DNA of 64,000 nt from an uncultured Clostridium sp. GTDB taxonomy: Bacteria; Bacillota; Clostridia; Oscillospirales; CAG-272. Positions within the stretch are counted from its first letter, which is position 1. Every line of letters begins with the position of its first letter. The notes beneath the pieces were generated by a model, which saw only the letters and a list, made by a program, of their open reading frames with translations, ran no database searches and was not told the origin of the DNA. This document shows positions 9,601 to 58,862 of this stretch, piece after piece. Location of the stretch: the NCBI GenBank assembly GCA_964463245.1, contig CAYXBU010000001.1:36554-100553 (forward strand), given 5' to 3'. Made by a program: the position numbers and the translations under genes.

Positions 9601-10709
9601 CCGTGTACTATGTGTTCAACGACCGCCCGGGCTACAGCCTGCTCAGCATCGGCGACGAGGAGGGCAGTTACACCTGGGACGGCAAGCGGATCACGCTGGA
9701 CGGGCTCGGTAGCTTTGATGGTGACGTGCGCGGGAGCTATTGGCGGTATGACGACCTGATCGTTCTGCTGTCCGAGGATGACCGCATGGTGGGCTTCTCC
9801 TGCACGGCGGCACGGGCGGCGGAGGGTGTCGTGACCCCCTTGGCGACCGACGGCTACCAAGGGGTCTGGTACAAGGCCTCCGAACTGCATGAGAGCGAGG
9901 TCGGGGACAAGTATTACAAGCTCCTTCTGGACGGCTTCGGTCACGCGACCTTCTTATATTGGAATGAGGACTACGGTTGTTACCGCTTCACCTGGGGCAA
10001 TGAGTGGACGCCCTACACCCTGACCGATACCGGTGTCCACTGCCGGTTCAATCAGTACCAGCTTGCCGATCTGGTGTTCTACTACGATATGCAACTGGTC
10101 TACTCCAAGTCCTTCGGCTACATGGGGGAGACCTCCTTCACGGCAGGCGGCTATAGCGGCACGACTCAGCCGCCCGCCCTGCCGAACGGCCTGATCGGAA
10201 GCTACACCGGGCTGGATGCGAACGGTGTGGCGGTGGTGTTCAACCTCCGCGCCGACCTGAGCGGGAGCTGGCGCGGTCAGCCCTTCACCGCCACCTACGA
10301 TGGCGAACACAGCTTGTATTTCGTCACGACCGGCGAGTCCTACTGCTTTGACACGCAGACTCTGACCCTGACGGGCGGGGGACAGACCATCTCCCTGTCC
10401 CGCGCAGGGGAGGTCACCGAGGTCATCCCTGCCGCCCTGTGCGGGAGCTTCAGCGGAGTCTGGAGCGGCCTTAACGTGGCCTCGGGCGAGGTGCGCACCG
10501 TGGTGGTGCAGTCGGACGGAACCGTCCTCTATCAGGGGATGGAGTTCGCGGCGACCTACTCTGCGGGGGCTGTTTACGGTACATCCGGCAACTTTACCAT
10601 CCGCCTGACATGGGACGGCGGGAGCGGCTACGCGGCTCGGGTGGTGTTCACCGACCCGAGCGAGGGCGGCTCACATGAGTATGTGTGCGAGTCATTGCAA
10701 CCGGACTGA
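6651..10709 (+). CDS. giant surface lipoprotein 2 (1352 aa), paralog of lipoprotein 1
   Basis: ORF 6621-10709. Start set at ATG 6651 (GAGGA RBS, 27 nt after the upstream stop). MKRNRINIRWLPLLCLIAALLIGMVAC-GGGG lipoprotein signal. T/E/D/P linker. Flg_new-type repeat (VTVRFTGESV...LTLSAVWE, ~6939-7136). GLUG-like region ~7150-8340 (RPYRISSAEDLMDF, FMGEFDGAGYTIRNL, GGLIGY, GGLVGY, GGIIGF, GGILGY). Long unassigned beta-rich C-terminus. Confidence 0.85.
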   Translation: MKRNRINIRWLPLLCLIAALLIGMVACGGGGDTATDPATGDTTTEATADATGNTTPATETDTGEIDTAPAESSTETTTTDAETSSDTETEPSPQPETVTVRFTGESVSTADQTVLYGTSALRPRDPEREGYVFLGWVAEGQEDFFDFSMPLTADLTLSAVWEDVRQDGSAERPYRISSAEDLMDFSERMNDPEAEGYEDYCRAHFVLTADIDMAGCSYVAAGQTVTLREGEEDEVTLGGFMGEFDGAGYTIRNLTIRKNLRSTIYYVGLFGVTERAYIHDLTLEDIDYTIESGANTTAIGAVVGGIAGRSDLSEFFNVKVSGVIEMRMCADNSAYIGGLCGIYGVSGRSGQAYVAYVENCSAGVETVIGKFDDGEKGVLEGAINGGLIGYLTTSSGAVGLLNCTAEGKVYGGQYVGGLVGYINGSYVSVINCANYAPVTGTASDSTYCGGIIGFSSGDNTIMDCVSLGRVKGVKAPTGSVYKSYAGGILGYASEDDYEMYYDAGTAVINCYYLNEISTFDVRNSAGKKLSRATDFTADFAQQNLRWDLSVLPFGEDGHARPADHRSEAKAWKLTLVEVDGSSHTVERNYADGMYAMVGEHEAGKSQGTLLFFDWMHGEDVRLRFYVPVIKDMTLTAKCGDVADIAGVYTGTWTLHESGDAGTLVLMTNGSVQWVSDTVVRGTYTWDGKHIELEFFSNVGEVSGTVDGKKLTYTVDAGMTGSVEYTFSKTDLRFVGEYFSADGDSLTFSGESGVAFRAEGVNGGRPISGSFTDKGDRLEISGFGDYFASFAVIVNADGSLTVTAVPRAGKGKALDGVTFAPPASVSYEGQPFVGDYHCPYLNLSSYDNTPYLENYTLSLNADGTVAYRGFYSTKLGYYYVFRDGSYIVLTLEGYTSIFRYDAEHNVIWGTLERGVTAKTTLVLLPVSEGDAKLFVLDLSRENILMTNPVRSYLIRDGKIAFDAVIEAPSFEEGARVTVDGKDYRTVYYVFNDRPGYSLLSIGDEEGSYTWDGKRITLDGLGSFDGDVRGSYWRYDDLIVLLSEDDRMVGFSCTAARAAEGVVTPLATDGYQGVWYKASELHESEVGDKYYKLLLDGFGHATFLYWNEDYGCYRFTWGNEWTPYTLTDTGVHCRFNQYQLADLVFYYDMQLVYSKSFGYMGETSFTAGGYSGTTQPPALPNGLIGSYTGLDANGVAVVFNLRADLSGSWRGQPFTATYDGEHSLYFVTTGESYCFDTQTLTLTGGGQTISLSRAGEVTEVIPAALCGSFSGVWSGLNVASGEVRTVVVQSDGTVLYQGMEFAATYSAGAVYGTSGNFTIRLTWDGGSGYAARVVFTDPSEGGSHEYVCESLQPD

Positions 10710-10781
10710 TTATTTATGCAGATAAACTCATAATTATTCGGATTTTTTTCGGAAAACCGTGGTTTTTTTGGAAAAACCATC

Positions 10782-10810
10782 TTGACATTCATGCGAAAAT
10801 GATATATAAT
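10782..10810 (+). promoter_or_regulatory. sigma-A type promoter of lipoprotein 3
   Basis: TTGACA 10782-10787, a 17-nt spacer, TATAAT 10805-10810. A/T tracts lie upstream (10745-10780). GAGGAGG RBS at 10827-10833, 7 nt before ATG 10841. Confidence 0.75.
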
Positions 10811-10840: not shown

Positions 10841-13800
10841 ATGAAAAAGAGAATATCTCTCGTCCTGCTTTTGTCCGTACTGGTGCTGGCACTGGCTCTG
10901 TTTGCCGTTGCTTGCTCTGATGACGGCGAGGGCGAGACCGGCACGTCCACCGAGTCTGCGGTCGTGACCGAGACCCCGACCGAGACTCCCACCGAGGCTC
11001 CGACCGAGACTCCGACTGAGCCTGTGGAGACTCCCACCGAGTCTGCAGAGACTCCCACCGAGACCCCGACCGAGGCTCCCACCGAGACCCCGACCGAGGC
11101 TCCGACTGCGGCTCCCACCGAGGCTCCCACCGAGCCCGCGACCGAGCCTGCAACTGAGCCTGCAACCGAGCCCGACAGCTATGCCGACGGCATGAAGGCA
11201 TGGTACGAGGGCAAGGGCGAGGGAACCACATGGAAGGACCTTGTCGGCAGCAACGACATGACCGTCACCATCGACGATAAGAACTACTTTACCGAAGATG
11301 GCTTCTTTGTGGATTCCACCCAGCACTACTTCCCGCAGGAGATCGTTGACATGGTCAACGGCAGAACCTTCACGGTAGAGATCCTGCTGAGCGACATCGT
11401 TTCCAAGGGCGGAAACTACAATACCCTGCTGAACAGTAAGAACGACAACCTGTCCCTGTATCAAATGACCACCGATGGTAAGCTGTACCTCAAGTGGGCG
11501 CAGAGCGGTCAGCCCAGACCGACGACTGCGGCCGATGTCAGCGACCTGCTGGAGAACGATACCCTGATCACCATCACCTACAATGCAGACGGTAAGGTCT
11601 CCATGTACATCAACGGTGAGCTGATCGCCGCTTCCGACTGCGGCGGTAAGATCATGGGCGCGGATAACCTGTTCATCGGCCATGAGCATGAGCAGAAGGT
11701 GTTCAGCGGCATTTACAAGTCCATCCGCTTCTACGATCGTGAGCTGACCGCCGCTGAGGTCATGAACAACAAGCTCTACGACGAGGTTCGCAAGAACCAG
11801 CCCAAGCAGCTGTGGACACCGATCTCTTCCACCGCTATGTCTGCCGATACCTACTACGAGGACGGCACGACCATGAAGGACGGTCAGGCTCAGGCATGGC
11901 TGGCCGAGAATCGCGCTGACGGTATCAAGGGCGTGAACAACATCATGTTCCGCGGCTGGGCCGGCATCGGCGATAAGGAGATCGCTGCGTACGGCTACGC
12001 ATTCGATGAGGATCTGGAGGGTGCTGTCTGGAGTGCCGACTTCATCAAGGATGCTGAGGATGCTGTTAAGGCCGCTGCCGGCAGCGAGTTCGCTACCCGC
12101 TATGAGATCCTGGTGGATCTGTCCGTGGTTCCCGAGAACGAGACCCATGTCCTGCACCTGCTGGTGAAGGCCACCGACGGCTCCGTCTTCGAGCTGGCGA
12201 ACTGGAATACCATCGAGATCAAGGTCACGGGTAATCAGGCCGCGCCCAAAGGTGTCTCCTTCGACGACTTCAAGGCCGGTGCTACCGAGTACCACAACAC
12301 CGCCGCTACCGGCAACTGCTTCGTGCAGCTGGAGGCCGCGAACAACACCGTGACCGTTCCCGCCGGCGGAAACCATGATTCCGTGTACTTCCGCGGCTGG
12401 ATCGGCTTTAACCAGGCCATGACCCAGATCGGCTATGCCATCGACGGCGGTGAGATCGTCTGGGACGACTTCTTCAAGAACACCGAGGATGCTGTCAAGG
12501 GTGCGGGCGGCGAGTTCGCACAGCGATTCGAGGTAACGGTTCCCACGGCTGAACTGGCGGCCGGTACTCATACCGTTGCCTGCATCATCGAGCTGGAGGA
12601 CGGGCGAGTCTATGTCTTCTCCGAGATCACGCTGGTGATCGAGCAGGCTACCATCGACAGCTATGTCGGTACCTGGTACGACATGGATAAGCAGATCCTG
12701 ATCACGGTCGCCGCTGATGGTACCGTCACCGGCACCAATGTCGCCTCTGCCGCGCTGAACGACGACGGCGCGCTGGTCGTGAAGACCAACGAGCGCATGG
12801 AGAGCTACACTCTGACCCCCGCTGCCGACGGCAAGAGCGTGAACGTGGATCACGCCTTTGATCCCTACGGCGACGGCTACGACATCGACCATGAGAGCTT
12901 CACCCTGACCAAGCTGGAGGCCACCGGCCTCGGCGGTTCCTACCGTCAGGACAAGAACACCTACCTGATCGTGGCGGACAACGGTGTCATCACCAAGGTC
13001 GGCTCTGCTGACTCCGACGCGCCTTACTTCGGTCTGGTCGTGGCGGATGCCGAGGGCAACGGCGTGACCGTGACCTATAAGTCCAGCAGCTACTCCAAGC
13101 TGTACAGCTTCCACGCTGTCAAGGACGAGAAGGGCAACCTGGTTCTGGACGGCAACGCAGGTCTGTATGTGGCTGACACGACCGACTTTGCAAGCTACTA
13201 CTGCTCCGAGACCGGCGAGTACCTGTATGTCTTCACGGTCGGCGAGACCTCTGTCATCGTCTACCGCGAGAAGCTGGACGAGGGCTATGCCTACGCCTAC
13301 GCTACCGTCGAGGGCACCCTTGCCGACGGCGAGATAATTACCTTCACCGCCGGTGAGAAGACCGGCACCGTCAAGCTGGCCGGCGGCTACATGAGCTACG
13401 CCTCCGCTGAGGCGGGCAGCTACACCGTCGGTGATAAGACCGCGACTCTGGACGGCTTCGGCACCATGACAATGGATGGTCAGACCTATGCCTACACCGT
13501 TGCAGGCGACCTGTTGACCGCTGAGGGTCTGGGCATCTACAAGCTGGATGTCGAGGCAAAGACCCTGACGGCCGCTGCCGAGATCGGCTATGCCGGTACC
13601 TACGACTACTGGGTGGATTACGCGTGGAACGAGAAGTACACCCTGAAGCTGGACGGCTACGGCACCGCGACCCTGATCTACTCCGCCTCCTACGGCGACA
13701 CCACCTATGTCGGTTCCTACACCGTTGTGGACGGCAAGCTGACCATCGCAGATTGCAACTACTCCTTCAACGGCGAGTGGACGCTGACCCATGACGGCAA

Positions 13801-15850
13801 CGCCATGGAGAAGACCTCCTGGGGTACGCTGTATCAGTTGGTCAAGACGGACTATGAGCCGACCATTGATGATTCCGTGTTCTTCGGCTACTGGCAGAAC
13901 GGCGATGTGATCCTCCACATCTACGAGGAGGAGGGTATGCTGTGGCTGGATGGCTTCGGCGTGACCTCCAAGCGGCCTTACCACTCCTGGGACGGTGCAG
14001 TCCTGATGTTCGAGGCGGCTGACGATTGCGCGATCCTGGAGAGCAAGCCCACCGTCATCTACATGATCTCCCTGCAGGACGGCAAGCTGTGCATCACGCA
14101 TGATTGCACCAACGGCTTCGACGACGACGGCTATGTGGCTACCGAGCCTGTGACCGTGACCTACGAGGCTGCCGAGGCTCCCGAGGAGACCTTCGCCTTC
14201 GGTGAGGATGTCATCGGTACCTGGTACAAGGCCGACGGCACCGAGATCGTCGTCACGGCCGACAGCATCACCGTCGGTGGCGTGGTCGGTACCGACTACT
14301 CCATGGAGATGGTATGGGGCTCCTACACCTACTACTTCAGCATCGACGGCGAGGCTTGCCAGCTGTATGCAGGCTGGCCCGAGTCGGGTGCCGGCATCTA
14401 CTACGGTCCGGCGGACAGCTGGGATGTCGAGGAGCTGTACGCAACGGCTCCTGCGGGCGAGAAGGACGAGTTCGCGGGCAAGTGGATCTGCGACAGCCTC
14501 GTTTGGGAGTTTGACGGTCAGGGTACCGCCACCAACGAGGACGGCTACACCTACAGCTACACCGTGGCTGACGGTGTCATCACCTTTGCCAACGCGGCTT
14601 ACACCATCACCGGCTCCATCAACGAGGATGGCGCACTGGCTCTGCACTACGACGACGGCTACGGCGAGGATATCTTTGACAAGGTCTTCACCAAGGAGGA
14701 GTCCGAGGAGCCTGTCGGCGAGCAGATCCCCGAGGAGCTGTGGGGCACCTGGTCCGGTGACACCGAGTGGGCACACTACGACCTGATCATCACGGCTGAC
14801 GGCGCGGATCTGGTTGAGGAGTACGAAGCAGAGTACGCCGTTGCCTACACCTTTGTTTCCTATGTGGACGGTGTCCTGACTCTCAACAGCATGGCATGGG
14901 GTGAGGTGACCCTGACCATCACCGGTGAGAACACCGCTCACTTCTACCAGAACCGCTACACCGAGTTCGACATGGTGCGCGGCGGCGCGACCGGCGGCGA
15001 TGAGGATAAGATCCCCGCTGAGTTCCAGGGCATCTGGGAGTGCGATTTCGATGCATACGGTTCTATTGGTCATGCTATCTGGACCATCACGGGGGACAGC
15101 GTTTCCCTGTATGCCGAGGAGATGGACTTTACCTACCGGTTCGTTTCCTATGCAGACGGCGTTCTGAACCTCTCCTGCGACGGCTTCCCCGCAACCATGA
15201 CCCTGACCGAGACCGGCATCCACTGCGTGGATGACTACTACGGTGAGATGGATCTGGTCAAGTCCGAGGGTGGCTCCGAGCCACAGGCCGGCATCCCCGA
15301 GGAGTTCTACGGCATCTGGGAGGGCGAGATCGATTCCTACGGTTCGACCACGCATGCGGTTTGGACCATCACGGCAGACGGTATCACCCTGTTCGCCGAG
15401 GATGTGTACTACGACTACACCTTTGTTTCCTACACCGACGGTGTTCTGAACCTCAACTGCGAGGGCTTCCCCGCAACCATGACTCTGACCGAGGACGGCA
15501 TCTACTGCGTGGATGACTACTACGGCGAGATGGATCTGACCAAGACCGGCGATGCTCCGGCTCCCGGCACCGAGGCTCAGATCCCCGAGGAGTTCCGGGG
15601 GATGTGGAGCGGTGAGTTCGACTTCTACGGCGAGATGACCACGATCGATCTGGTCATCGCTGACAAGAAGGTCACCATGTACCTGGACGGCGATCTGGAT
15701 TGGCCCACCGTCCTGAACTATGTGTCCTGCGAGGGCAACGTGCTGGTGGTGACCGATTCCATGATGGAGGTCACGCTGACCCTGAACGACGGTACGCTGC
15801 ACTACAGCGACGAGTACTTCGGAGAGTTTGACCTGACTCCGGCTGAGTAA
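10841..15850 (+). CDS. giant surface lipoprotein 3 (1669 aa): PTE linker, LamG-like jelly-roll, two FRGW modules, beta-rich modules, four C-terminal tandem repeats
   Basis: ORF 10685-15850. Start set at ATG 10841 with MKKRISLVLLLSVLVLALALFAVAC-SDDGEG (signal peptide plus lipobox). LamG/Laminin_G_3-like segment ~11180-11770 (...NLFIGHEHEQKVFSGIYKSIRFYDRELTAAEV). TAA stop followed by a strong hairpin. Confidence 0.88.
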   Translation: MKKRISLVLLLSVLVLALALFAVACSDDGEGETGTSTESAVVTETPTETPTEAPTETPTEPVETPTESAETPTETPTEAPTETPTEAPTAAPTEAPTEPATEPATEPATEPDSYADGMKAWYEGKGEGTTWKDLVGSNDMTVTIDDKNYFTEDGFFVDSTQHYFPQEIVDMVNGRTFTVEILLSDIVSKGGNYNTLLNSKNDNLSLYQMTTDGKLYLKWAQSGQPRPTTAADVSDLLENDTLITITYNADGKVSMYINGELIAASDCGGKIMGADNLFIGHEHEQKVFSGIYKSIRFYDRELTAAEVMNNKLYDEVRKNQPKQLWTPISSTAMSADTYYEDGTTMKDGQAQAWLAENRADGIKGVNNIMFRGWAGIGDKEIAAYGYAFDEDLEGAVWSADFIKDAEDAVKAAAGSEFATRYEILVDLSVVPENETHVLHLLVKATDGSVFELANWNTIEIKVTGNQAAPKGVSFDDFKAGATEYHNTAATGNCFVQLEAANNTVTVPAGGNHDSVYFRGWIGFNQAMTQIGYAIDGGEIVWDDFFKNTEDAVKGAGGEFAQRFEVTVPTAELAAGTHTVACIIELEDGRVYVFSEITLVIEQATIDSYVGTWYDMDKQILITVAADGTVTGTNVASAALNDDGALVVKTNERMESYTLTPAADGKSVNVDHAFDPYGDGYDIDHESFTLTKLEATGLGGSYRQDKNTYLIVADNGVITKVGSADSDAPYFGLVVADAEGNGVTVTYKSSSYSKLYSFHAVKDEKGNLVLDGNAGLYVADTTDFASYYCSETGEYLYVFTVGETSVIVYREKLDEGYAYAYATVEGTLADGEIITFTAGEKTGTVKLAGGYMSYASAEAGSYTVGDKTATLDGFGTMTMDGQTYAYTVAGDLLTAEGLGIYKLDVEAKTLTAAAEIGYAGTYDYWVDYAWNEKYTLKLDGYGTATLIYSASYGDTTYVGSYTVVDGKLTIADCNYSFNGEWTLTHDGNAMEKTSWGTLYQLVKTDYEPTIDDSVFFGYWQNGDVILHIYEEEGMLWLDGFGVTSKRPYHSWDGAVLMFEAADDCAILESKPTVIYMISLQDGKLCITHDCTNGFDDDGYVATEPVTVTYEAAEAPEETFAFGEDVIGTWYKADGTEIVVTADSITVGGVVGTDYSMEMVWGSYTYYFSIDGEACQLYAGWPESGAGIYYGPADSWDVEELYATAPAGEKDEFAGKWICDSLVWEFDGQGTATNEDGYTYSYTVADGVITFANAAYTITGSINEDGALALHYDDGYGEDIFDKVFTKEESEEPVGEQIPEELWGTWSGDTEWAHYDLIITADGADLVEEYEAEYAVAYTFVSYVDGVLTLNSMAWGEVTLTITGENTAHFYQNRYTEFDMVRGGATGGDEDKIPAEFQGIWECDFDAYGSIGHAIWTITGDSVSLYAEEMDFTYRFVSYADGVLNLSCDGFPATMTLTETGIHCVDDYYGEMDLVKSEGGSEPQAGIPEEFYGIWEGEIDSYGSTTHAVWTITADGITLFAEDVYYDYTFVSYTDGVLNLNCEGFPATMTLTEDGIYCVDDYYGEMDLTKTGDAPAPGTEAQIPEEFRGMWSGEFDFYGEMTTIDLVIADKKVTMYLDGDLDWPTVLNYVSCEGNVLVVTDSMMEVTLTLNDGTLHYSDEYFGEFDLTPAE
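10966..11172 (+). repeat. in-frame 12-nt periodic repeat encoding a (P-T-E-x)n linker
   Basis: Repeated accgagrcyccsacc units translate as TETPTETPTEAPTETPTEPVETPTESAETPTETPTEAPTETPTEAPTAAPTEAPTEPATEPATEPATEP. The repeat lies entirely inside the CDS frame. Confidence 0.9.
14726..15847 (+). repeat. four tandem ~94-aa coding repeats at the C-terminus of lipoprotein 3
   Basis: Units start at 14726, 15011, 15293 and 15581, each opening IPEELWGTWSG / IPAEFQGIWEC / IPEEFYGIWEG / IPEEFRGMWSG. They end ...YYGEMDL(V/T)K or YFGEFDLTPAE. Units 2 and 3 are also very similar at the DNA level. Confidence 0.9.
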
Positions 15851-19802: not shown

Positions 19803-20348
19803 ATGAGAGACGACACGCAGGACACCCTGCGCCTGACCGAGCGATACCTCGCGCGGGACGAGAGCGTGGTGCAGGAGACAGCGCGGCTGTATGAGCCGCT
19901 GTGCATGAGCATCGCGCTGAACATCCTCTGCAACCGCGAGGACGCGGAGGAGTGTGTCAACGACACCTGGCTGAAGGTGTGGAACCACATCCCGCCCGAC
20001 CGCCCGCGTTCAATGGCGGCCTATCTGGGAAGGATCGTCCGCAACCTGGCCATCAACCGCTGGCACGCGGGGCGGGATCGGGCATTCCTGGTGGATCTGG
20101 ACGAGCTGCGGGATTGTCTTCCGCTTGCCGAGGAGGAGGCGGGACAGCTGCCCACCCTGCTGGACGAGTTCTTAGCGGGCTGTGACCCGCTGGATCGCCG
20201 TCTGTTCGTAGGGCGGTACTGGTACGCCTACTCGGTCAAGGATATGGCGGCGGCCAACGGCATGAAACGCAACACGGTCTCGCAACGCCTGACGCGGGTG
20301 CGAAAGCAGTTGAAGCAGTTTTTGGAGGAAAGGGGTTACAGAATATGA
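19803..20348 (+). CDS. RNA polymerase sigma-70 family (ECF-type) sigma factor
   Basis: 181 aa. Region 2 (DAEECVNDTWLKVWNHIPP...YLGRIVRNLAINRW) and region 4 HTH (YSVKDMAAANGMKRNTVSQRLTRVRKQLKQFL). AAGGAAGGAG RBS. Confidence 0.88.
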   Translation: MRDDTQDTLRLTERYLARDESVVQETARLYEPLCMSIALNILCNREDAEECVNDTWLKVWNHIPPDRPRSMAAYLGRIVRNLAINRWHAGRDRAFLVDLDELRDCLPLAEEEAGQLPTLLDEFLAGCDPLDRRLFVGRYWYAYSVKDMAAANGMKRNTVSQRLTRVRKQLKQFLEERGYRI

Positions 20349-21994
20349 AGGAGCGGAAGCGTATGGAGCGGGAGACTCTCCTCAAGCAGCTCGGGAGCAT
20401 TTCCGAGACATATGTACTGGAGGCGGCGGATATCGCCTCATCCGAGCGACCGGAGCGGCAGGAGCGGCGGGGGAGCTTTTGGTTCCGCCTGCGTACCAGC
20501 CCCCTCCCGGCGGTCTGCTTGGGCTTTGTCGTGGCACTGGTGGTCATCGCTGCCATCGTCCGTGCGAGTTGGACATCCCCCGAGACCCCTGTGGGCACCG
20601 AGGGCGGGCTACCCGGTGCCTCTCTGTCCGGAACGGATGTAATCTACACGCCCCCGGTGGATGCCCCCGAGGAGGACGCGGAGCTGATCGCACAGGGCTA
20701 CACGGCACAGATCGGTCGTATCGTTCGCCACACGGGCGGGTACTTCTTCGTGTGGCAGGACAGCTACGGTCGCTGGGACTTTACCGTCTTGACAAAGGGC
20801 TTCGGGCAGACCGATGCCATCCCGGATGACCTCAACAACGGCGACCTCGTGCGGGTGTATTATCAATATATCCAAAAGACCTATCCGTCATCCATGCCGG
20901 TCTACCGCGCCGAGCTGTTGCAGAGAGGTCAGCTTGATCTGGTGGACGGTGCGACACTGGGCAACATCATGGCTCTGAGCGGAGACATGGAAATGGGCGC
21001 GGGCTGGGCGATCTGCTTCGATAACATCCAGACCGGACGGCTGTACCGCATGGGAAATGAGTGGTTCTTGATCCGCGAGGACAAGGATGGAAACCAGACG
21101 GGTTACTGCTATCTTCGCAGTGCATCGTGGCTGGATCCGGGCTTGGCGGATGACTTCCAAACCGGCGACCGCGTGGAGGTGTCGGGCGGTTTCTTCTACT
21201 ATACCGACCCGCCTATCCTGCCTACCTACCGCGTGACCCTTCTGGAGCGCGGCGACGAGAGCGACATTGACCCCGATATCCTTCGGAAATTGACCGATTG
21301 GGGCGACCTGAAGCTCGAAGGCGGCACCCTCCCGCCCTTTGAGTCGGCGACCGAGCCGGAGACCGAACCGAAGAATGAGCCGGAGACCGAGCCCCTGCCG
21401 ACGGGGTATACCAAGACGGTCGGTCGTATCCTTCGCCGCACGAATGGTAGCTACTACCTCATTTCGGAGGATGGCGGAAGCGTGGTATGCATAGGAAGTG
21501 CTCTCAGTGGGGTAAATGTTATCCCGGATGATCTGCACAACGGCGATCTCGTGCGGGTGTACCACATGGGACTTTTTGAGAGTTATCCGGTACAGATGCC
21601 GGTCTATCGCCTGGACTTGATCCGGGAAGGAACTCTTACCGAGATCACGAATATCAAGTCGGTGCTGAATCGCATCATCACGGGGATCGAGTTCGATGTG
21701 GATGTGACCGGGCGGCTGTACCACGATGAGGCAAACGACCTCTGGTACCTGTTTTGGACGGACGATGAGGGGCACACGACAGGCCGTTTCGATCTCCTGT
21801 ATGACTACCTTGTCGGGGATGTCGACCTCGCCAATTTCCAGACCGGCGATCTCGTGACGGTGTCGGGGGATAACTATTTGGAGTCCGACCCGCCCATCCT
21901 GCCGGCCTTCTATATCACGCTCCGGGCACACGGAACCGAGGCCGACATCGACCCGGAGCATCTGGCGTGGCTGATAAATGATCCGACTGAGTGA
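20345..21994 (+). CDS. sigma-associated single-pass membrane protein (putative anti-sigma factor) with four DUF3221-like extracytoplasmic modules
   Basis: ATGA overlap with the sigma gene. Short cytoplasmic N-terminus (LLKQLGSISETYVLEAA), one TM (LPAVCLGFVVALVVIAAIV), then an internally duplicated ectodomain. Confidence 0.6.
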   Translation: MKERKRMERETLLKQLGSISETYVLEAADIASSERPERQERRGSFWFRLRTSPLPAVCLGFVVALVVIAAIVRASWTSPETPVGTEGGLPGASLSGTDVIYTPPVDAPEEDAELIAQGYTAQIGRIVRHTGGYFFVWQDSYGRWDFTVLTKGFGQTDAIPDDLNNGDLVRVYYQYIQKTYPSSMPVYRAELLQRGQLDLVDGATLGNIMALSGDMEMGAGWAICFDNIQTGRLYRMGNEWFLIREDKDGNQTGYCYLRSASWLDPGLADDFQTGDRVEVSGGFFYYTDPPILPTYRVTLLERGDESDIDPDILRKLTDWGDLKLEGGTLPPFESATEPETEPKNEPETEPLPTGYTKTVGRILRRTNGSYYLISEDGGSVVCIGSALSGVNVIPDDLHNGDLVRVYHMGLFESYPVQMPVYRLDLIREGTLTEITNIKSVLNRIITGIEFDVDVTGRLYHDEANDLWYLFWTDDEGHTTGRFDLLYDYLVGDVDLANFQTGDLVTVSGDNYLESDPPILPAFYITLRAHGTEADIDPEHLAWLINDPTE

Positions 21995-22016: not shown

Positions 22017-22040
22017 TCCCCCTCCGACGGCGGAGGGGGA
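22017..22040 (+). terminator. intrinsic terminator
   Basis: TCCCCCTCCG, loop ACGG, CGGAGGGGGA: a perfect 10-bp stem followed by TATTCATGTATATT. Confidence 0.7.
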
Positions 22041-22254
22041 TATTCATGTATATTCACTCGTTTATTCATGCAGAATGACCATCGTAAGACGGCATATCCT
22101 GCATTGGACGCGCTTGACCCCCTCCCACAGCACCCCGAATGTGTCGAAATGCACCGTATTTACACGACCTTTTGGCGAAACGCACAAAAAAACAGCCTGC
22201 CAAGCCCGTTCGCATATTTATTCGCACAAATTCAAAAAAGTTGCGAAAAAGGGC

Positions 22255-22283
22255 TTGACAAATGCATATTTATGCGGTATAAT
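22255..22283 (+). promoter_or_regulatory. sigma-A type promoter of the amino-acid ABC operon, with an operator-like motif in the spacer
   Basis: TTGACA 22255-22260, 17 nt, TATAAT 22278-22283. The spacer contains GCATATTTATGCG (22264-22276). Confidence 0.75.
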
Positions 22284-22344
22284 AGCGCCATCACAGACGA
22301 GCACACGAACAAAAATATAACGGCTCATCAAGAAGGAGATCATC

Positions 22345-23265
22345 ATGAAAAAGTTTCTATCCATTCTGCTGGCGGCACTGATGCTGTGCGGTAGCGTATG
22401 CGCTCTGGCTTCCTGCGGCGATGCCGAGGAGGAGGGTCTGGACAAGGCCTACAACAAGTACCTGGAACAGTACAAGTTTGACGACAGCGACAAGCCTACC
22501 CTGACCGTGGCACTCTCCCCCGACTTTGCTCCCATGGAGTTCACCGACACCGCTAAGTCCGGTCAGGATCAGTACGTCGGCTTCGACCCCCTGCTGGCTC
22601 AGTATCTGGCCAAGGAGCTGGACATGAAGCTGGTGATCAAGCCTATGTCCTTTGATGCCTGCATGACCGCCGTTCAAACCGGCGCAGCTGACCTCGGTAT
22701 CTCCGGCTTCTCCTGGACGGCCGAGCGTGGTGAGAAGTTCCTGATCTCGGACTACTATGTGGCCGGCGAGAATGAGAACGGACAGGTCATCATCACCACC
22801 AAGGAGAATGAGGGCAAGTGGAAGACCAAGGCTGACTTCGCCGGCAAGAAGATCGGCGCACAGGGCGGCTCTCTGCAGGAGCTGCTGGTCAAGGAGAACT
22901 TCGGTGAGGATGCTCTCTCCCTGTACACCGACCTGACGGTCGCCGTGGAGGCTCTGATGACGGGTAAGATCGATGCACTGGCGGTTGCTGTCGGTAACGG
23001 CGATGCCTTTATCAGCAAGAACCCCGACAAGCTGGGTCAGACCGGCTTTGAGTTCGAGGTCGAGGATAAGTACAAGAACAACGTCATTCTGATCAACAAG
23101 AACGATCAGGAGCTGCTGGACAAGGTCAACGCGGCTCTGGCAAAGGCCATGGCGGCCGATGTCTACGACAGCTGGTACGAGGCCTGCCAGATCTACTCTC
23201 AGGTCAAGACGGCTGACGAGCTGGGCTACGACGATAACGGCAACAAGATCACGAACGCGGATTGA
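22345..23265 (+). CDS. polar amino acid ABC transporter substrate-binding lipoprotein (SBP_bac_3 type)
   Basis: 306 aa. MKKFLSILLAALMLCGSVCALASC-GD lipoprotein signal. Family-3 SBP features (LTVALSPDFAPMEF, DLGISGFSWTAERGEKFLISDYY). Confidence 0.85.
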   Translation: MKKFLSILLAALMLCGSVCALASCGDAEEEGLDKAYNKYLEQYKFDDSDKPTLTVALSPDFAPMEFTDTAKSGQDQYVGFDPLLAQYLAKELDMKLVIKPMSFDACMTAVQTGAADLGISGFSWTAERGEKFLISDYYVAGENENGQVIITTKENEGKWKTKADFAGKKIGAQGGSLQELLVKENFGEDALSLYTDLTVAVEALMTGKIDALAVAVGNGDAFISKNPDKLGQTGFEFEVEDKYKNNVILINKNDQELLDKVNAALAKAMAADVYDSWYEACQIYSQVKTADELGYDDNGNKITNAD

Positions 23266-23377: not shown

Positions 23378-24064
23378 ATGACGTTTGGTGAGCTTATCGT
23401 ATCCATGGGCGAGATATTTGCGAAGTACTGGAAGGTGTTCCTCTTGGAGGGACTGACCTGTACTCTTCTGCTCTCGCTCATTACCGTGTTTTTTGGGGCG
23501 ATCTTGGGTGCCCTGTTTGCTGTCGGCAAGATGTCACGCGTTAAGCCCTTGAGTTGGATCGTGACCGCCGTGATCGAGGTGGTGCGCGGAACGCCGTTGC
23601 TCCTGCAGCTGTATGTGGGCTACTTCCTCTTGCCCATGCTGTTCCCGTCGCTCCAACTGAGTGAATTTACCACCGTTGCGATCTCGCTGGTGCTCAACAG
23701 TGCCGCGTATGTCTCGGAGGTCATTCGTTCCGGTATCCAGGCCGTGGACAAGGGGCAGACCGAGGCGGCGCGCACGGTGGGGCTGACCTCCTTTACCACC
23801 ATGACCTCGGTGGTTCTGCCGCAGGCCATCAAGAATATCCTGCCGGCTCTGGGTAACGAGTTCGTGACGGTCATCAAGGAGACCTCGCTGGCCTCCACCT
23901 TCTTCGTGGGTGAGCTGATGACTTCCTACCAGATCGTGAAGGGCAATACCTTCCAGTCTCTGCCCACATTGATGATCGTGGGTATCATCTATTTTGTCAT
24001 TACCTTTGCCCTGTCCAAGGTCATCGGCTTATTTGAAAGGAGAATGAAGCATGAGCGTGCTTGA
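23378..24064 (+). CDS. polar amino acid ABC transporter permease (HisM/GlnP family)
   Basis: 228 aa. [41 protein letters not shown] and the EAA-loop region. Confidence 0.9.
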
Positions 24065-24989
24065 TACGCAGTCCGCCCCCCGCAAGATGCTGGAGGTACG
24101 CGGCTTATATAAGAGTTTCGGTGACCTGCAGGTCCTGCGCGGGGTATCCACTGACATCGGCGCGGGCGAGGTGGTGTCCATCATCGGTCCCTCCGGTTCG
24201 GGTAAGAGCACCATGCTGCGGTGCATGAACCTCTTGGAGACCCCCACCTTCGGCGAGGTATGGATGGAGGGTAAGCTCCTGACCCCCGTCGATCCCTACC
24301 TGCACCCTGAGGTCATCGAGACCTCCAAGACCTATCAGAAGCTGGTGGGGCAGGGCATGAGCGAGGAAGAGGCTGTCCTGAAGATCAAGAAGGAAGACTT
24401 GCTTCACGAGCATTTCAGTGCCGAGGGCAAGGAGTATCGTGCCCTCATGAAAAAGATCTACGCCGAGAATCACCTGGATATCAATCTTGCACGCCGCAAG
24501 ATGGGCATGGTGTTCCAGCAGTTCAACCTGTTCAACAACCTGACGGTCATGGGCAACATGATCCTGGCTCCGGTCAAGCTGAAGCTCAAGACCCGCGAGG
24601 AGGCGGTCGCGCAGGCGGAGGTGCTCCTGCAACGTATCGGTCTGCTGGACAAGAAGGATGTCTACCCCTCTACCCTGTCGGGCGGACAGAAACAGCGTAT
24701 CGCCATCGTCCGCGCCTTGATGATGGAGCCGGACGTGATGCTGTTTGACGAGCCGACCTCGGCACTCGACCCGGAGATGATCGGCGAGGTGCTGGACTTG
24801 ATGAAGGATCTGGCGAATACCGGCATGACCATGGTCATCGTCACCCACGAGATGGCCTTTGCGCGGGAGGTATCTGACCGCGTGCTGTTTATGGACGGTG
24901 CCAACATCCAGGAGGAAGGCGCACCCGAGCAGATATTCAAGAACCCGCAGAACCCGCGTCTGAAGGAATTCCTCAGCAAGGTTCTCTGA
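24051..24989 (+). CDS. polar amino acid ABC transporter ATP-binding protein with an internal insertion
   Basis: 312 aa. Walker [11 protein letters not shown]-loop [17 protein letters not shown], Walker [13 protein letters not shown]-loop VTHEM. An extra segment of roughly 60-70 aa sits between Walker A and the Q-loop. Confidence 0.9.
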
Positions 24990-24996
24990 TCCTGCC

Positions 24997-26445
24997 ATGA
25001 TCGAGCAAACAAAGCAGATCGCACTGGATGCGATCACCGCCGAGGCCGCGACCTTCTGCGACCTGTCGGATGAGATATGGGGCTATGCCGAGCTGTCCTT
25101 GAAGGAATTCCGCTCGGCGGGAGCCTACTGCCGCGTGCTGGCCGAGCTGGGCTTTGCCGTCGAGCAGGAGGTCTGCGGGATCAAGACCGCATTTTTGGGT
25201 CGGTACGGCAGCGGGAAGCCGGTGATCGGCATACTCGGCGAGTTTGATGCGCTGTCGGGGCTGTCGCAGGTCGGCGGTGCTACCGAGCACACCGAGCTGA
25301 CCCCCGGTGGGAACGGTCACGGTTGCGGGCATAATATGCTGGGCGCGGGCGCACTGGCGGCGGCGTACGGCATCAAGACTTATCTGGAAAAGACCGGCAA
25401 GAGCGGCACGGTCATCTTCTTCGGTACGCCCGGCGAGGAGGGCGGTGCAGGGAAGGCCTTCATGGCGAAAGCGGGACTGTGGTACGACATCGACTGCGCC
25501 CTGACCTGGCATCCCGACGACGCCAACGAGGTTGTGACCGGTACCTGCAACTCCTGCATCCAGACCCTCTACCGCTTCCACGGGGTCGCGGCACACGCCG
25601 CCGGTGACCCGGAGGACGGTCGCAGTGCGCTGGATGCCGTGGAGCTGATGAACACCGGGGTGCAGTACCTGCGGGAGCATATGAAGTCGGATGCTCGCAT
25701 CCATTACGCCATCATCGACGGCGGCGGTGCCTCCCCCAACGTCGTACAGGCCAACGCAAGTGTGCTGTACATGGTGCGCTCCCTGTCGGTCAAGGATGCC
25801 CTCGCCCTGCAAGCGCGGGTGGATCGGATCGCTGAGGGGGCGGCACTCATGACTGAGACCACCTGCGAGAAGGTCTTTATCGACGGTTGCTCCAACACGG
25901 TGCCGAACCACACACTGGAGAAGGTGATGTATGAGAATTATACCGCGTTGGGAGTGCCGCACTATACCAAGGAGGAACAGGCCTTCGCACGCGCCCTCAA
26001 GACCACCTACCCCGACCGCGGTCGTCTGCCGGGTCTGGCGGCCGCCTGTGACCCGAACGCCGCCGCTGTCGTGCGGGAGCTGAGCGATGGCGGGACACTG
26101 GCTCTGAATCAGTTCCTCTGCCCGCTCTACACGGGCTACGCCTTTGAGGCCGGCTCCACCGATGTGGGGGATGTCTCCTGGCAGACCCCGACGGCACAGC
26201 TGCATACCGTTTGCTTTCCCGCCGGTGCACCGGGACACTCCTGGCAGAATGTTTCCTGCGGCAGGACTTCCATCGGGCACAAGGGACTTCTCCACGCGGG
26301 ACGAGTGCTGGCGGCGACCGCCATCGACCTGTACGAGCACCCCGACCTGCTGGCCGCCGCACAGGCGGAATTTGAGCAGGTCGCGCAGGGGGGCTACGTC
26401 TGCCCCATCCCCGATGGGGAGACCGCTCGGGCGGTGGAGCTGTAA
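24997..26445 (+). CDS. M20 family amidohydrolase (AbgB / aminobenzoyl-glutamate utilisation protein B-like)
   Basis: 482 aa. LSDEIWGYAELSLKEFRSA, ILGEFDALSGLSQ, GHGCGHNMLGAGALAAA, GTPGEEGGAGKAFM. Starts 7 nt after the ATPase stop. Confidence 0.85.
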   Translation: MIEQTKQIALDAITAEAATFCDLSDEIWGYAELSLKEFRSAGAYCRVLAELGFAVEQEVCGIKTAFLGRYGSGKPVIGILGEFDALSGLSQVGGATEHTELTPGGNGHGCGHNMLGAGALAAAYGIKTYLEKTGKSGTVIFFGTPGEEGGAGKAFMAKAGLWYDIDCALTWHPDDANEVVTGTCNSCIQTLYRFHGVAAHAAGDPEDGRSALDAVELMNTGVQYLREHMKSDARIHYAIIDGGGASPNVVQANASVLYMVRSLSVKDALALQARVDRIAEGAALMTETTCEKVFIDGCSNTVPNHTLEKVMYENYTALGVPHYTKEEQAFARALKTTYPDRGRLPGLAAACDPNAAAVVRELSDGGTLALNQFLCPLYTGYAFEAGSTDVGDVSWQTPTAQLHTVCFPAGAPGHSWQNVSCGRTSIGHKGLLHAGRVLAATAIDLYEHPDLLAAAQAEFEQVAQGGYVCPIPDGETARAVEL

Positions 26446-26455
26446 AAATATCGTG

Positions 26456-26492
26456 TGGGACGCTCTCCCTATGGGCGTCCCATCGATCTTTT
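26456..26492 (+). terminator. intrinsic terminator after the M20 gene
   Basis: TGGGACGC ... GCGTCCCA stem followed by TCGATCTTTTA. Confidence 0.65.
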
Positions 26493-31396: not shown

Positions 31397-31473
31397 GCGG
31401 CGTTAGCTCAGCTGGATAGAGTGCCTGGCTACGAACCAGTAGGTCGGGGGTTCGAGTCCCTTACGCCGCGCCA
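31397..31473 (+). tRNA. tRNA-Arg (anticodon ACG)
   Basis: Acceptor GCGGCGT/ACGCCGC. D arm GCTCAGCTGGATAGAGT. Anticodon loop CTACGAA. T loop TTCGAGT. Encoded CCA. A few G-U and mismatched stem pairs. Confidence 0.85.
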
Positions 31474-33312: not shown

Positions 33313-33555
33313 AAAAAGAAAAGCCGCAGGGACGGTATACCATCACTGCGACACACACGGAAAGCGGGTGCTTGGCGTGATAGCTCTCCATCTTCCATCG
33401 TATATGGGAAGATGACAGTACGGCAGATGTTCTCTGCAATACCGGTATATACGGCAGGATCCACACCGTATACCCTCGGCGATCATCCCTTTCGCACGGG
33501 AGTGGTTCCTCCTCTGTTCGTGCTACTTTTGATGGCCGCGCCTCTACCTTCTACG
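33313..33555 (-). promoter_or_regulatory. lysine riboswitch (L-box / LYS element) with terminator expression platform
   Basis: The minus strand reads GAAGGTAGAGGCGCGGCCATCAAAAGTAGCAC...GTGCGAAAGGGATGATCGCCGAGGG...CTGCCGTACTGTCATCTTCC. This parallels the B. subtilis lysC leader blocks AGAGGTGCG, AAGAGTA, GAAAGGGGAGCGTCGCCGAAG and CTGTCA. Next, CATCTTCC/GGAAGATG offers an alternative pairing. The terminator is GTCGCAGTGATGG, loop TATA, CCGTCCCTGCGGC, then TTTTCTTTTT (33313-33352). Confidence 0.8.
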
Positions 33556-33741: not shown

Positions 33742-33830
33742 GGAGGGTTATCGAAGTGGTCATAACGAGGCGGTCTTGAAAACCGTTTGAGAGCAATCTC
33801 GCGTGGGTTCGAATCCCACACCCTCCGCCA
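33742..33830 (+). tRNA. tRNA-Ser (anticodon UGA)
   Basis: Acceptor GGAGGGT/ACCCTCC. Anticodon loop CTTGAAA. Long variable arm TTGAGAGCAATCTCGC. T arm GTGGGTTCGAATCCCAC. Encoded CCA. Confidence 0.92.
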
Positions 33831-43934: not shown

Positions 43935-45320
43935 TTATCCGACGATACCGCTCGCATCCTCCTGCAGGAGCAGCTGATCCAGCAGGGTGGAGAACATGGT
44001 CAGGTGGTGCATGGGTCTGCCGGGGAAGTAGGCCTCGATGTAGTCCAGATAGTCGTTCTCAGTGTTCATCAGCATCCCGATCAGGTAGGTCTCGCCGTAG
44101 CCGGTGTAGTCGGGGATATCCCAGTTGGTGGCCTCCATGTACAGGTAGGGGATGCCCGCCTTGGCAAAGGGCGCGTGGTCGCTCCAGTTACCGGTGGCGG
44201 GGGAGGCGTAGGACGGCACGGTCTTTCCGGCGGCCAGGTCATCCGGGGAGAGCTTGTCCCATGTCCAGGGGTTGGACTTGAAGGTCAGGCCGATCTCATC
44301 GGCGACCTGCATGGCATTGTCGTAGGCACCCGTCGCGCTGACGGTCTTGGACTCGTTGTCCTGCACTCCGCCGTAGAGGTAGCAGTAGTCACCGCAGACC
44401 AGGGAGTCCATGTTGATCATGTACAGGGTGTCGGCCACGGCCTGCTCGCTCATGGCGGCTACATAGGCGGAGGCACCGTACATCCCGTATTCCTCGCCCG
44501 TCAGGAACACGAATTGGATGGTATAGGCGGTCTCGACGTCATGGAAGGCCTGTGCCGTTGCCAGTCCCAGAGCCACGCCGGAGCCGTTGTCGCCCGTGCC
44601 GGTCCCGTCATAGTGCATGGCGACGATGATGGTCTTCTCGCTCTTGCCGGGCTTGGTCACGATGATGTTCTGACTGTAGCCGGTGGCCTTGGTGTAGGTG
44701 CCGTTCTCGTCCTCGACATACTTCCGACCGGTGCGGCTGTAGGTCTTACCGTCGGTCGTGACCGAGGTCAATGCCGAGGTGGTGGTGTTAGGGTCATCGA
44801 CCGGCACATACTTGGACATGGCCACATCCTGATAGACGATGTCCGCCTCGGTGTAGCCCGCCTGCAGCAGCTCGGTGTGGATCCACTTCTGGCAGAGCAG
44901 GAAGTTCTCCCCGGCGAAGCAATCCCGATCCGAGAGCATCTTATCGATGTAGCAGAGCTTGGCGTAGGCCTCAGCGGCGTGGTTGGTATAGACCACCTCC
45001 GGCTCGACCGGCACCTCGGCCTCGGGGGCATCGGTCTCGGCCATGGCATCCGCCAGCGCACCGACCTGCCCACTCAAGGTGCCGATGACCTCCTCCAGTT
45101 CGCCTTGCTTGGACAGGATGTCCGCACCGCTGTCCGGCTTGCCCGCAATGGCGGCGATCTGTTGGGATAGGGCGGCCACGGCACTCTCCAACTCCACCTG
45201 CTTGCTCATCAGGGCGTCATTGGTCGTTTGGTCATCGACGGCACTGCTGCACCCGATGGTGCCCGCCAGCAGGCAGAGGGCGGCGGCACCGGACAAAATG
45301 GATTTCATAATAGGTTTCAT
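43935..45320 (-). CDS. M28 family aminopeptidase lipoprotein
   Basis: 461 aa. MKPIMKSILSGAAALCLLAGTIGC-SS lipoprotein signal. Coiled N-terminal region. M28 core (IIVAMHYDGTGTGDNGSGVALGLATAQAF, FLTGEEYGMYGASAYV). Confidence 0.85.
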   Translation of the reverse strand: MKPIMKSILSGAAALCLLAGTIGCSSAVDDQTTNDALMSKQVELESAVAALSQQIAAIAGKPDSGADILSKQGELEEVIGTLSGQVGALADAMAETDAPEAEVPVEPEVVYTNHAAEAYAKLCYIDKMLSDRDCFAGENFLLCQKWIHTELLQAGYTEADIVYQDVAMSKYVPVDDPNTTTSALTSVTTDGKTYSRTGRKYVEDENGTYTKATGYSQNIIVTKPGKSEKTIIVAMHYDGTGTGDNGSGVALGLATAQAFHDVETAYTIQFVFLTGEEYGMYGASAYVAAMSEQAVADTLYMINMDSLVCGDYCYLYGGVQDNESKTVSATGAYDNAMQVADEIGLTFKSNPWTWDKLSPDDLAAGKTVPSYASPATGNWSDHAPFAKAGIPYLYMEATNWDIPDYTGYGETYLIGMLMNTENDYLDYIEAYFPGRPMHHLTMFSTLLDQLLLQEDASGIVG

Positions 45321-45361: not shown

Positions 45362-45390
45362 ATTATACGCATAAATATGCGGTTTGTCAA
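45362..45390 (-). promoter_or_regulatory. sigma-A type promoter of the M28 peptidase gene, with an operator-like motif in the spacer
   Basis: On the minus strand: TTGACA, 17 nt (AACCGCATATTTATGCG), TATAAT. The spacer motif matches the one at 22264-22276. Confidence 0.75.
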
Positions 45391-45605
45391 GTACTTTCTG
45401 AATAATTTTTCAGAATCGTGAATATAATCGGCAAATTCGAGAATAAAAACTCAAAAATTGTGCATATCGGCGAAGACCCGCAGGGCGGGGCGGAAGGGGC
45501 TCCCTCGCGACATAGGCGGCCGCTTGCCCGCGGACAAAAAGCCCCCCCTCCAAGCGGGCTCACTTGTGCATATTTGACAAAATCGGGAAAATCCGCAAAA
45601 AAAGC

Positions 45606-58663: not shown

Positions 58664-58707
58664 CCTGTCTGCCGCCCCGACGGGCGACAGAGTCCTCAAA
58701 TATTGCA

Positions 58708-58856
58708 TATCTTTGGGAATAGGTGAAATTCCATACCGGTGGTACCCGACTCCGACAGCCGCCTCGGCTCGGATCGAAAGCCCACGACCGCGCAAACAGC
58801 GCGCTGAGCAGGTGAGACTCCTGCGCCGACGGTAAAAGTCCGGATGGGAAAGGATA
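58708..58856 (+). promoter_or_regulatory. FMN riboswitch (RFN element)
   Basis: TATCTTTGGGAATAGGTGAAATTCCATACCGGTGGTA ... GCGCCGACGGTAAAAGTCCGGATGGGAAAGGATA matches the RFN conserved blocks (GGTGAAATTCC, ACCGGyGGTA, GCCGACrGT-AAAGTCyGGATGGGA). A ribU-type gene follows 6 nt later. Confidence 0.9.
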
Positions 58857-58862
58857 AAGTAT

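Follow-up and report, generated by a model that had tools for sequence, protein, structure and literature searches.

The transporter operon, the M28 peptidase gene and their promoters

The window (the whole 64-kb stretch of DNA that was analyzed) carries a four-gene operon on the plus strand and a peptidase gene on the minus strand, as had been correctly called in the initial annotation. Domain matches identified the first three genes of the operon as an SBP_bac_3 lipoprotein substrate-binding protein (SBP) of a polar amino-acid ABC importer (22345..23265), a BPD_transp_1 ABC permease (23378..24064) and an ABC ATPase of 312 aa (24051..24989). An M20 amidohydrolase (24997..26445; TIGR01891, E 7e-76) is the last gene and is followed by a terminator-like hairpin at 26455-26483. 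The second gene encodes a peptidase of the M28 family whose N-terminus resembles a signal or lipoprotein sequence (43935..45320, minus strand) and is divergent from rpoB. With respect to likely substrates, the SBP is probably arginine-related, since its best solved relative was 4I62 (E 2.8e-29), which is the arginine-binding protein AbpA of S. pneumoniae (PMC4022495). Further solved matches of the SBP were T. maritima ArgBP (4PRS/4PSH) and STM4351, and the solved relatives of the M20 enzyme were HmrA and Xaa-Arg dipeptidase. The ATPase carries an insertion of ~70 residues between its Walker A and signature regions, and Pfam ABC_tran was matched in two stretches; orthologous ATPases are 311-334 aa in length, and the insertion is therefore conserved.

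Each of the two units is preceded by a sigma-70-type promoter. That of the transporter operon (22255..22283, plus strand) consists of TTGACA at 22255-22260, a spacer of 17 nt and TATAAT at 22278-22283, with 12/12 consensus matches, and that of the M28 peptidase gene (45362..45390, minus strand) of TTGACA at 45390-45385, 17 nt and TATAAT at 45367-45362. The initial annotation had described three copies of a 13-mer, GCATATTTAT[GT]CG, in these promoter regions, and all three proved to be exact and correctly placed; with one flanking base added on each side the motif reads TGMATAWWTATKC[A/G]. Copy A (plus strand; core GCATATTTATTCG, 22212-22224; 14-mer CGCATATTTATTCG, 22211..22224) is the distal box of the transporter operator. 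Copy B (plus strand; core GCATATTTATGCG, 22264-22276; 14-mer TGCATATTTATGCG, 22263..22276) begins 52 nt after the start of copy A and lies within the 17-nt spacer of the perfect TTGACA/TATAAT pair. Copy C (minus strand; core GCATATTTATGCG, 45368-45380; 14-mer CGCATATTTATGCG, 45368..45381) occupies the M28 promoter spacer, again perfect and of 17 nt, at an offset of 1 nt relative to copy B, so that the two are indeed in almost the same register. Compared with the 14-mer TGMATAWWTATKCA, copy B has 1 mismatch and copies A and C have 2 each. A further box that had been missed, TGAAAAATTATTCA at 45399-45412 (minus strand), also has 1 mismatch and forms a second M28 operator box 31 bp, or three helical turns, upstream of copy C. 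Two weaker boxes resembling the ARG boxes of ArgR/AhrC, each with 3 mismatches to TGMATAWWTATKCA, are located at 45440..45464 (minus strand), at -72 and -83 from copy C and in helical phase with it; their membership of the operator is uncertain. No Rfam family matched at either site when an RNA element was looked for.

The motif is more frequent in the window than composition would predict. Six matches at ≤2 mismatches were found where 0.81 were expected, and 0/100 shuffles reached six. Using a curated gene mask to divide intergenic from coding DNA and a composition-matched Markov model for the expectation, the 5.0 kb of intergenic DNA was found to hold 5 matches to TGMATAWWTATKCA at ≤2 mismatches versus 0.21 expected, an enrichment of ~24-fold, with 0/400 Markov simulations reaching 5, while the 59.6 kb of coding DNA held only 1. 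Within the window the motif is therefore not equally dense elsewhere, and is scarce outside the promoters of acquisition genes. The earlier judgement that it is hard to ascribe to chance stands, with the shuffles, the intergenic enrichment and the cross-species conservation described below all in agreement.

Several other elements were observed in the window. Three overlapping ARG-like boxes, TGATTATTTATGCA (1 mismatch), TGCAGATAAACTCA and CTCATAATTATTCG, two of which are 20 bp apart, occur at 10707-10740 in intergenic DNA, ~45-75 bp upstream of a perfect promoter (10782-10810) that precedes the gene for a 1669-aa lipoprotein with a Laminin_G_3 domain (10841-15850); these boxes may mark a further ArgR target or may be due to chance. 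Repeated ATTCA half-sites, ATATTCATGTATATTCACTCGTTTATTCATG, are present at 22040-22070, ~220 bp upstream of copy B and just past the terminator of the ECF-sigma operon, and a similar repeat, GAATATTCATGTGAATATTCAT, was seen at 4826-4880 of L009, one of the orthologous loci. They might serve as distal ARG half-sites or be bound by a different protein. The window also contains a lysine riboswitch (33373-33554, minus strand, 90 bits), an FMN riboswitch (58705-58859, plus strand, 85.9 bits) and two tRNA genes (31397-31470 and 33742-33827).

Conservation, spacing and occurrence of the design in other genomes

Footprinting of orthologous promoters, proposed with the initial annotation as a check, revealed that boxes are kept at both the transporter and the M28 promoters, with the single exception of the M28 orthologue at L135 (55% identity), in whose promoter no convincing box was found. 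Orthologues of the SBP-permease-ATPase-M20 operon, with SBPs 64-89% identical, were found among quite different neighbours. A spacer box in the same register as copy B reads TGAATAATTATGCG in L137, CGAATAATTATACA in L009, TGAATATTTATGCA in L139 and TGAATAATTATCGA in L011, the changes being exchanges between TGCAT and TGAAT and substitutions at the central W positions, within surrounding DNA that has diverged. In L137, the orthologous locus with 89% identity, copy A is retained letter for letter at -52 and the spacer box is altered at degenerate positions only. In L139 the two boxes are perfect and separated by 42 bp, one helical turn fewer, the -42 box standing in place of copy A, and the boxes of L009 are 21 bp apart in the classical tandem arrangement. 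ARG boxes were likewise found at the M28 orthologues of L133 (67%), L134 (60%) and L136 (54%), whose neighbours differ. At the place of copy C these read TGAATATTTATGCG (L133) and TGAATAAATATGCG (L134), and at the place of the second M28 box, at -31, TGCATAAAAATGCA in L134 and the ARG-like TCAAGATTTTTGCA in L133. The same register is thus kept in orthologous promoters while the flanking genes differ, which supports the earlier proposal that the motif is a shared operator, presumably of a repressor, at promoters of amino-acid and peptide acquisition genes. In 10 other loci, too, an M20 gene accompanies an SBP promoter with an ARG box.

The transporter operon has as neighbours the genes of an ECF sigma factor and of a putative anti-sigma factor, the latter ~520-550 aa long and without Pfam matches, at 19803-21994 of the window and at 2531-4647 of L009. 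The pair is co-directional with the operon in the window, divergent from it in L009 and L010, and absent from more distant orthologous loci. It was considered as a local regulator and discarded, since the promoters match the sigma-70 consensus and the pair does not accompany most orthologous operons.

The classical layout of ARG boxes is a 21-bp tandem, and paired in-phase boxes are typical of hexameric ArgR. In the related promoters, upstream boxes were located at 21, 30-32, 41-42, 50-52, 61-63, 73, 83, 92, 102 and 112 bp from the spacer box, the commonest spacing being 30-32 bp (18 cases, in 53 related promoters among the matches listed). The best period was 10.2-10.3 bp, with a Rayleigh R of 0.70 (n = 77) whose significance is overstated, the promoters being related by descent. 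A period of ~10.3 bp accounts for the distance of 52 nt between copies A and B, which corresponds to five turns; the 31 bp between copy C and its partner corresponds to three turns, the commonest arrangement. The 21-bp tandem does not occur in the window and was found in the relatives L009 and L136.

A contig collection with one genome per species (genome_contigs) was scanned with the pattern TTGACA-N2-5-GMATAWWTATKC-N0-3-TAWAAT, and at least 119 loci were returned, for each of which the first downstream gene was taken and clustered by BLAST. As the pattern itself fixes most core positions, independent evidence comes solely from the flanks, the spacing and the downstream genes. Amino-acid ABC binding proteins of several subfamilies, 25-75% identical to the window SBP, accounted for at least 39 loci. 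A BLAST cluster of at least 14 loci consisted of argininosuccinate synthase genes (argG), two representatives of which matched NF001770 at E 1e-172 to 1e-186. Among the matches listed, five argG loci were from Streptococcaceae (four Streptococcus, one Lactococcus) and nine from other sources, eight of these being titled as Clostridia, Oscillospiraceae, Acutalibacteraceae or Eubacteriales MAGs and one (L076) as Bacteroides; the argG evidence comes from other Clostridia and from Streptococcaceae species, and not from this organism or from relatives with >75% SBP identity. The argG promoter of L111, TTGACAATTGAATATTTATGCGGTATAAT, and window promoter B agree at all but 2/29 positions. The free base before the core was T in 42/53 SBP and argG promoters among the matches listed, as in TGNAT.

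The same scan returned several other classes of downstream gene. At least two loci in two MAGs, L039 and L119, have a C69 dipeptidase gene behind a promoter with an ARG box in its spacer, and the one representative scanned has a lipoprotein-type N-terminus; this suggests that other peptidases join the predicted ArgR regulon in relatives. At least 22 loci (L016, L019, L031, L033, L038, L049 and at least 16 others) precede a cluster of ~120-aa proteins, assigned to the ArsR/SmtB family from one scanned representative (L016). In these loci the spacer holds a longer palindrome, GTTGAATAWWTATTCAAC, which is repeated immediately downstream of the -10 element, an arrangement that seems to be a widespread autoregulated design among gut Firmicutes/Bacilli MAGs. 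Proteins of ~89 aa (range ~76-94 aa) follow promoters of the form TTGACA…AGCATAATTATGCTATAAT with the motif AGCATAATTATGCT at five or more loci (L015, L043, L068, L093 and L122); one of these proteins gave no NCBIfam match, and the loci may carry a toxin-antitoxin-type autoregulated operator. The remaining loci listed were singletons or had no gene called, and the singletons named by eye, L037 (biotin-carboxylase-type N-terminus), L040 (GyrB/ParE), L104 (MetK) and L123 (HisG), were set aside as probable chance matches.

An additional short element, (C/T)ATCA(A/C)(A/C), was observed 6-8 nt downstream of the -10 element in SBP and M28 promoters of many species and not in argG promoters. It is present at 22284-22296 and 45361-45349 (minus strand) of the window and in L046, L050, L132, L133 and L134. 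Since CATC stands at the same place in two other perfect promoters of the window, it may be general start-site context.

Identity of the regulator

The ARG box consensus published for E. coli is TNTGAATWWWWATTCANW, that for B. subtilis is CATGAATAAAAATKCAAK and that for Streptomyces is AWTGCATRWWYATGCAWT (PMC5291005); the E. coli box is also given as TNTGNATWWWWATNCANA (PMC4278536), and the half-site of L. lactis as WGHATADW (PMC6586332). Copy B matches the Streptomyces consensus AWTGCATRWWYATGCAWT at 16/18 positions and the E. coli consensus TNTGNATWWWWATNCANA at 11/14 specified positions. Copies A and C have C at position 1 and G at position 14, and in this respect depart from the TG…CA consensus. 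The initial annotation had left the regulator unnamed. The comparative evidence now points to ArgR/AhrC as the most likely one, because the motif fits published ARG boxes and precedes argG elsewhere, and from sequence comparison we put at roughly 85% the probability that the motif represents the half-unit of an ArgR/AhrC operator, known as the ARG box. Searches with phmmer for an argR/ahrC homologue returned none in the 64-kb window and 132 loci (~1 Mb), using E. coli ArgR and B. subtilis AhrC as queries. We assume that argR is present in this organism.

An uncharacterised repressor that recognizes an ArgR-like palindrome, and through it controls the acquisition genes independently of arginine, would fit with the outcome of the phmmer searches and with the outer C…G bases, in place of T…A, in copies A and C. 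The scan pattern, moreover, also picked up operators of unrelated regulators. Such a look-alike is nevertheless unlikely given the occurrence of the same design before argG in at least 14 genomes and the fit of the motif to published consensus sequences, and it is further disfavoured by the paired, helically phased boxes, typical of hexameric ArgR, and by the drift of orthologous boxes between TGCAT and TGAAT, both of which are known ARG-box forms. Among the unrelated operators recovered, those of ArsR/SmtB-type metalloregulators share the palindrome TGAATA…TATTCA and precede the ArsR-type cluster described above, yet the window sites have neither the extended GTTGAA…TTCAAC arms nor a second copy downstream of the -10 element, the genes behind them are those of the SBP and the M28 peptidase, and no ArsR gene is adjacent. 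We consider it highly improbable that the window sites belong to this class.

CodY senses branched-chain amino acids and GTP in Firmicutes and is a common regulator of peptidase and amino-acid transporter genes; its box has the consensus AATTTTCWGAAAATT. Control of the M28 and transporter promoters by CodY could operate through a 7-6-7 palindrome, TTCTGAAAAATTATTCAGAA, at 45417-45398 (minus strand) and through related AT-rich sites, and by eye this palindrome resembles the CodY box, with 4-5 mismatches. The reading fails for TTCTGAAAAATTATTCAGAA because the orthologues L134 and L133 have plain ARG boxes at that position and nothing CodY-like; in addition, copies A, B and C are unlike the CodY box, and the 31-bp phasing with copy C follows the ARG pattern. 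A role for CodY at these promoters therefore seems very doubtful. It could also be argued that the motif has no regulatory meaning and arises by chance or from the composition of AT-rich consensus promoters, or that it is part of a duplicated promoter cassette. Perfect TTGACA-17-TATAAT promoters are indeed numerous (9 in 64 kb), and promoters B and C share flanks (cTTGACAAA…TATAATA.CG.CATCACA). However, only 2/9 of these promoters, namely B and C, contain the motif, its intergenic enrichment was measured against a composition-matched model, and it is kept across species at 54-89% protein identity where the flanking DNA has diverged. On this conservation and these statistics a fortuitous origin or a duplicated cassette can be excluded within the scope of this analysis.

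Proposed control of arginine acquisition and comparison with known systems

In this protein family, it is established that the L-arginine-bound ArgR hexamer binds ARG boxes in pairs. We infer that the protein bound at the window sites is ArgR, that arginine represses, and that the genes behind the sites handle arginine-containing substrates. When arginine is plentiful, the arginine-loaded hexamer would bind the proximal and the distal box of each promoter; the DNA between them would be bent or looped and the core promoter occluded, the distal in-phase box providing cooperativity through this bending or looping. As the proximal box lies between the -35 and -10 elements, a repressor bound to it should keep RNA polymerase out. 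Under arginine shortage the repressor would leave, and the arginine-scavenging set, comprising the surface M28 aminopeptidase, the ABC importer and the cytoplasmic M20 hydrolase, would be expressed.

A broader reading, which we put forward tentatively and regard as possible rather than probable, is that Oscillospirales-like gut Clostridia possess an ArgR-run module reaching beyond the uptake of free arginine. In such a module the M28 peptidase would free arginine or arginine peptides outside the cell, and the SBP-permease-ATPase-M20 system would take up a conjugate of arginine (an Xaa-Arg dipeptide, or an N-acyl-arginine or ornithine derivative) for cleavage inside by the M20 enzyme. The boxes, flexibly spaced over 21-112 bp and in phase, would then imply looping by the hexamer and not a contiguous tandem.

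With respect to wider use, a simple pattern that combines promoter and operator is enough to recover part of the predicted ArgR regulon across genomes of uncultured Clostridia, and arginine acquisition becomes a probable role for an otherwise unannotated SBP-permease-ATPase-M20 operon and an M28 lipoprotein peptidase. This could help in reconstructing the metabolism of gut and rumen MAGs, for instance in the prediction of arginine auxotrophy or cross-feeding. Existing knowledge of how ArgR acts is unchanged, and it is well established that ArgR controls arginine ABC importers (E. coli artJ/artPIQM; pneumococcal abpA/artPQ). What is proposed here adds modestly to this, namely the M28 surface peptidase and the M20 hydrolase as putative conserved regulon members in uncultured Clostridia, and the variable but phased spacing of the boxes.

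Like the ARG boxes of E. coli ArgR, B. subtilis AhrC and Streptomyces ArgR, the window motif is an imperfect palindrome of the form TGNAT-W4-ATNCA, and as in the ArgR/AhrC systems it occurs as pairs on one face of the DNA, overlaps the core promoter, is associated with arginine-related genes and is found before argG. The differences are that the window pairs are 52 and 31 bp apart in contrast to the classical 21 bp, that two window copies have C…G outer bases, and that the half-site is of the TGCAT form, as in Streptomyces, and not the TGAAT form of E. coli and Bacillus. E. coli ArgR represses the arginine ABC importer promoters of artJ/artPIQM (PMC6640053). The system differs from that of the window in transporter subfamily and operon make-up, and has no peptidase or amidohydrolase attached to it. 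A further parallel is with S. pneumoniae, in which ArgR1/AhrC represses abpA, argGH, artPQ, abpB and aliB, AliB being peptide-binding (PMC4278536). That regulon includes arginine uptake genes, among them that of AbpA, the closest solved relative of the window SBP, and AliB for peptides, and Streptococcus argG promoters were found by the same scan pattern. While the pneumococcal targets given in that study include neither an M20 hydrolase nor an M28 peptidase, the window combines an SBP-permease-ATPase-M20 operon with an M28 peptidase gene, and does so in an uncultured Clostridia-type bacterium of ~60% GC.
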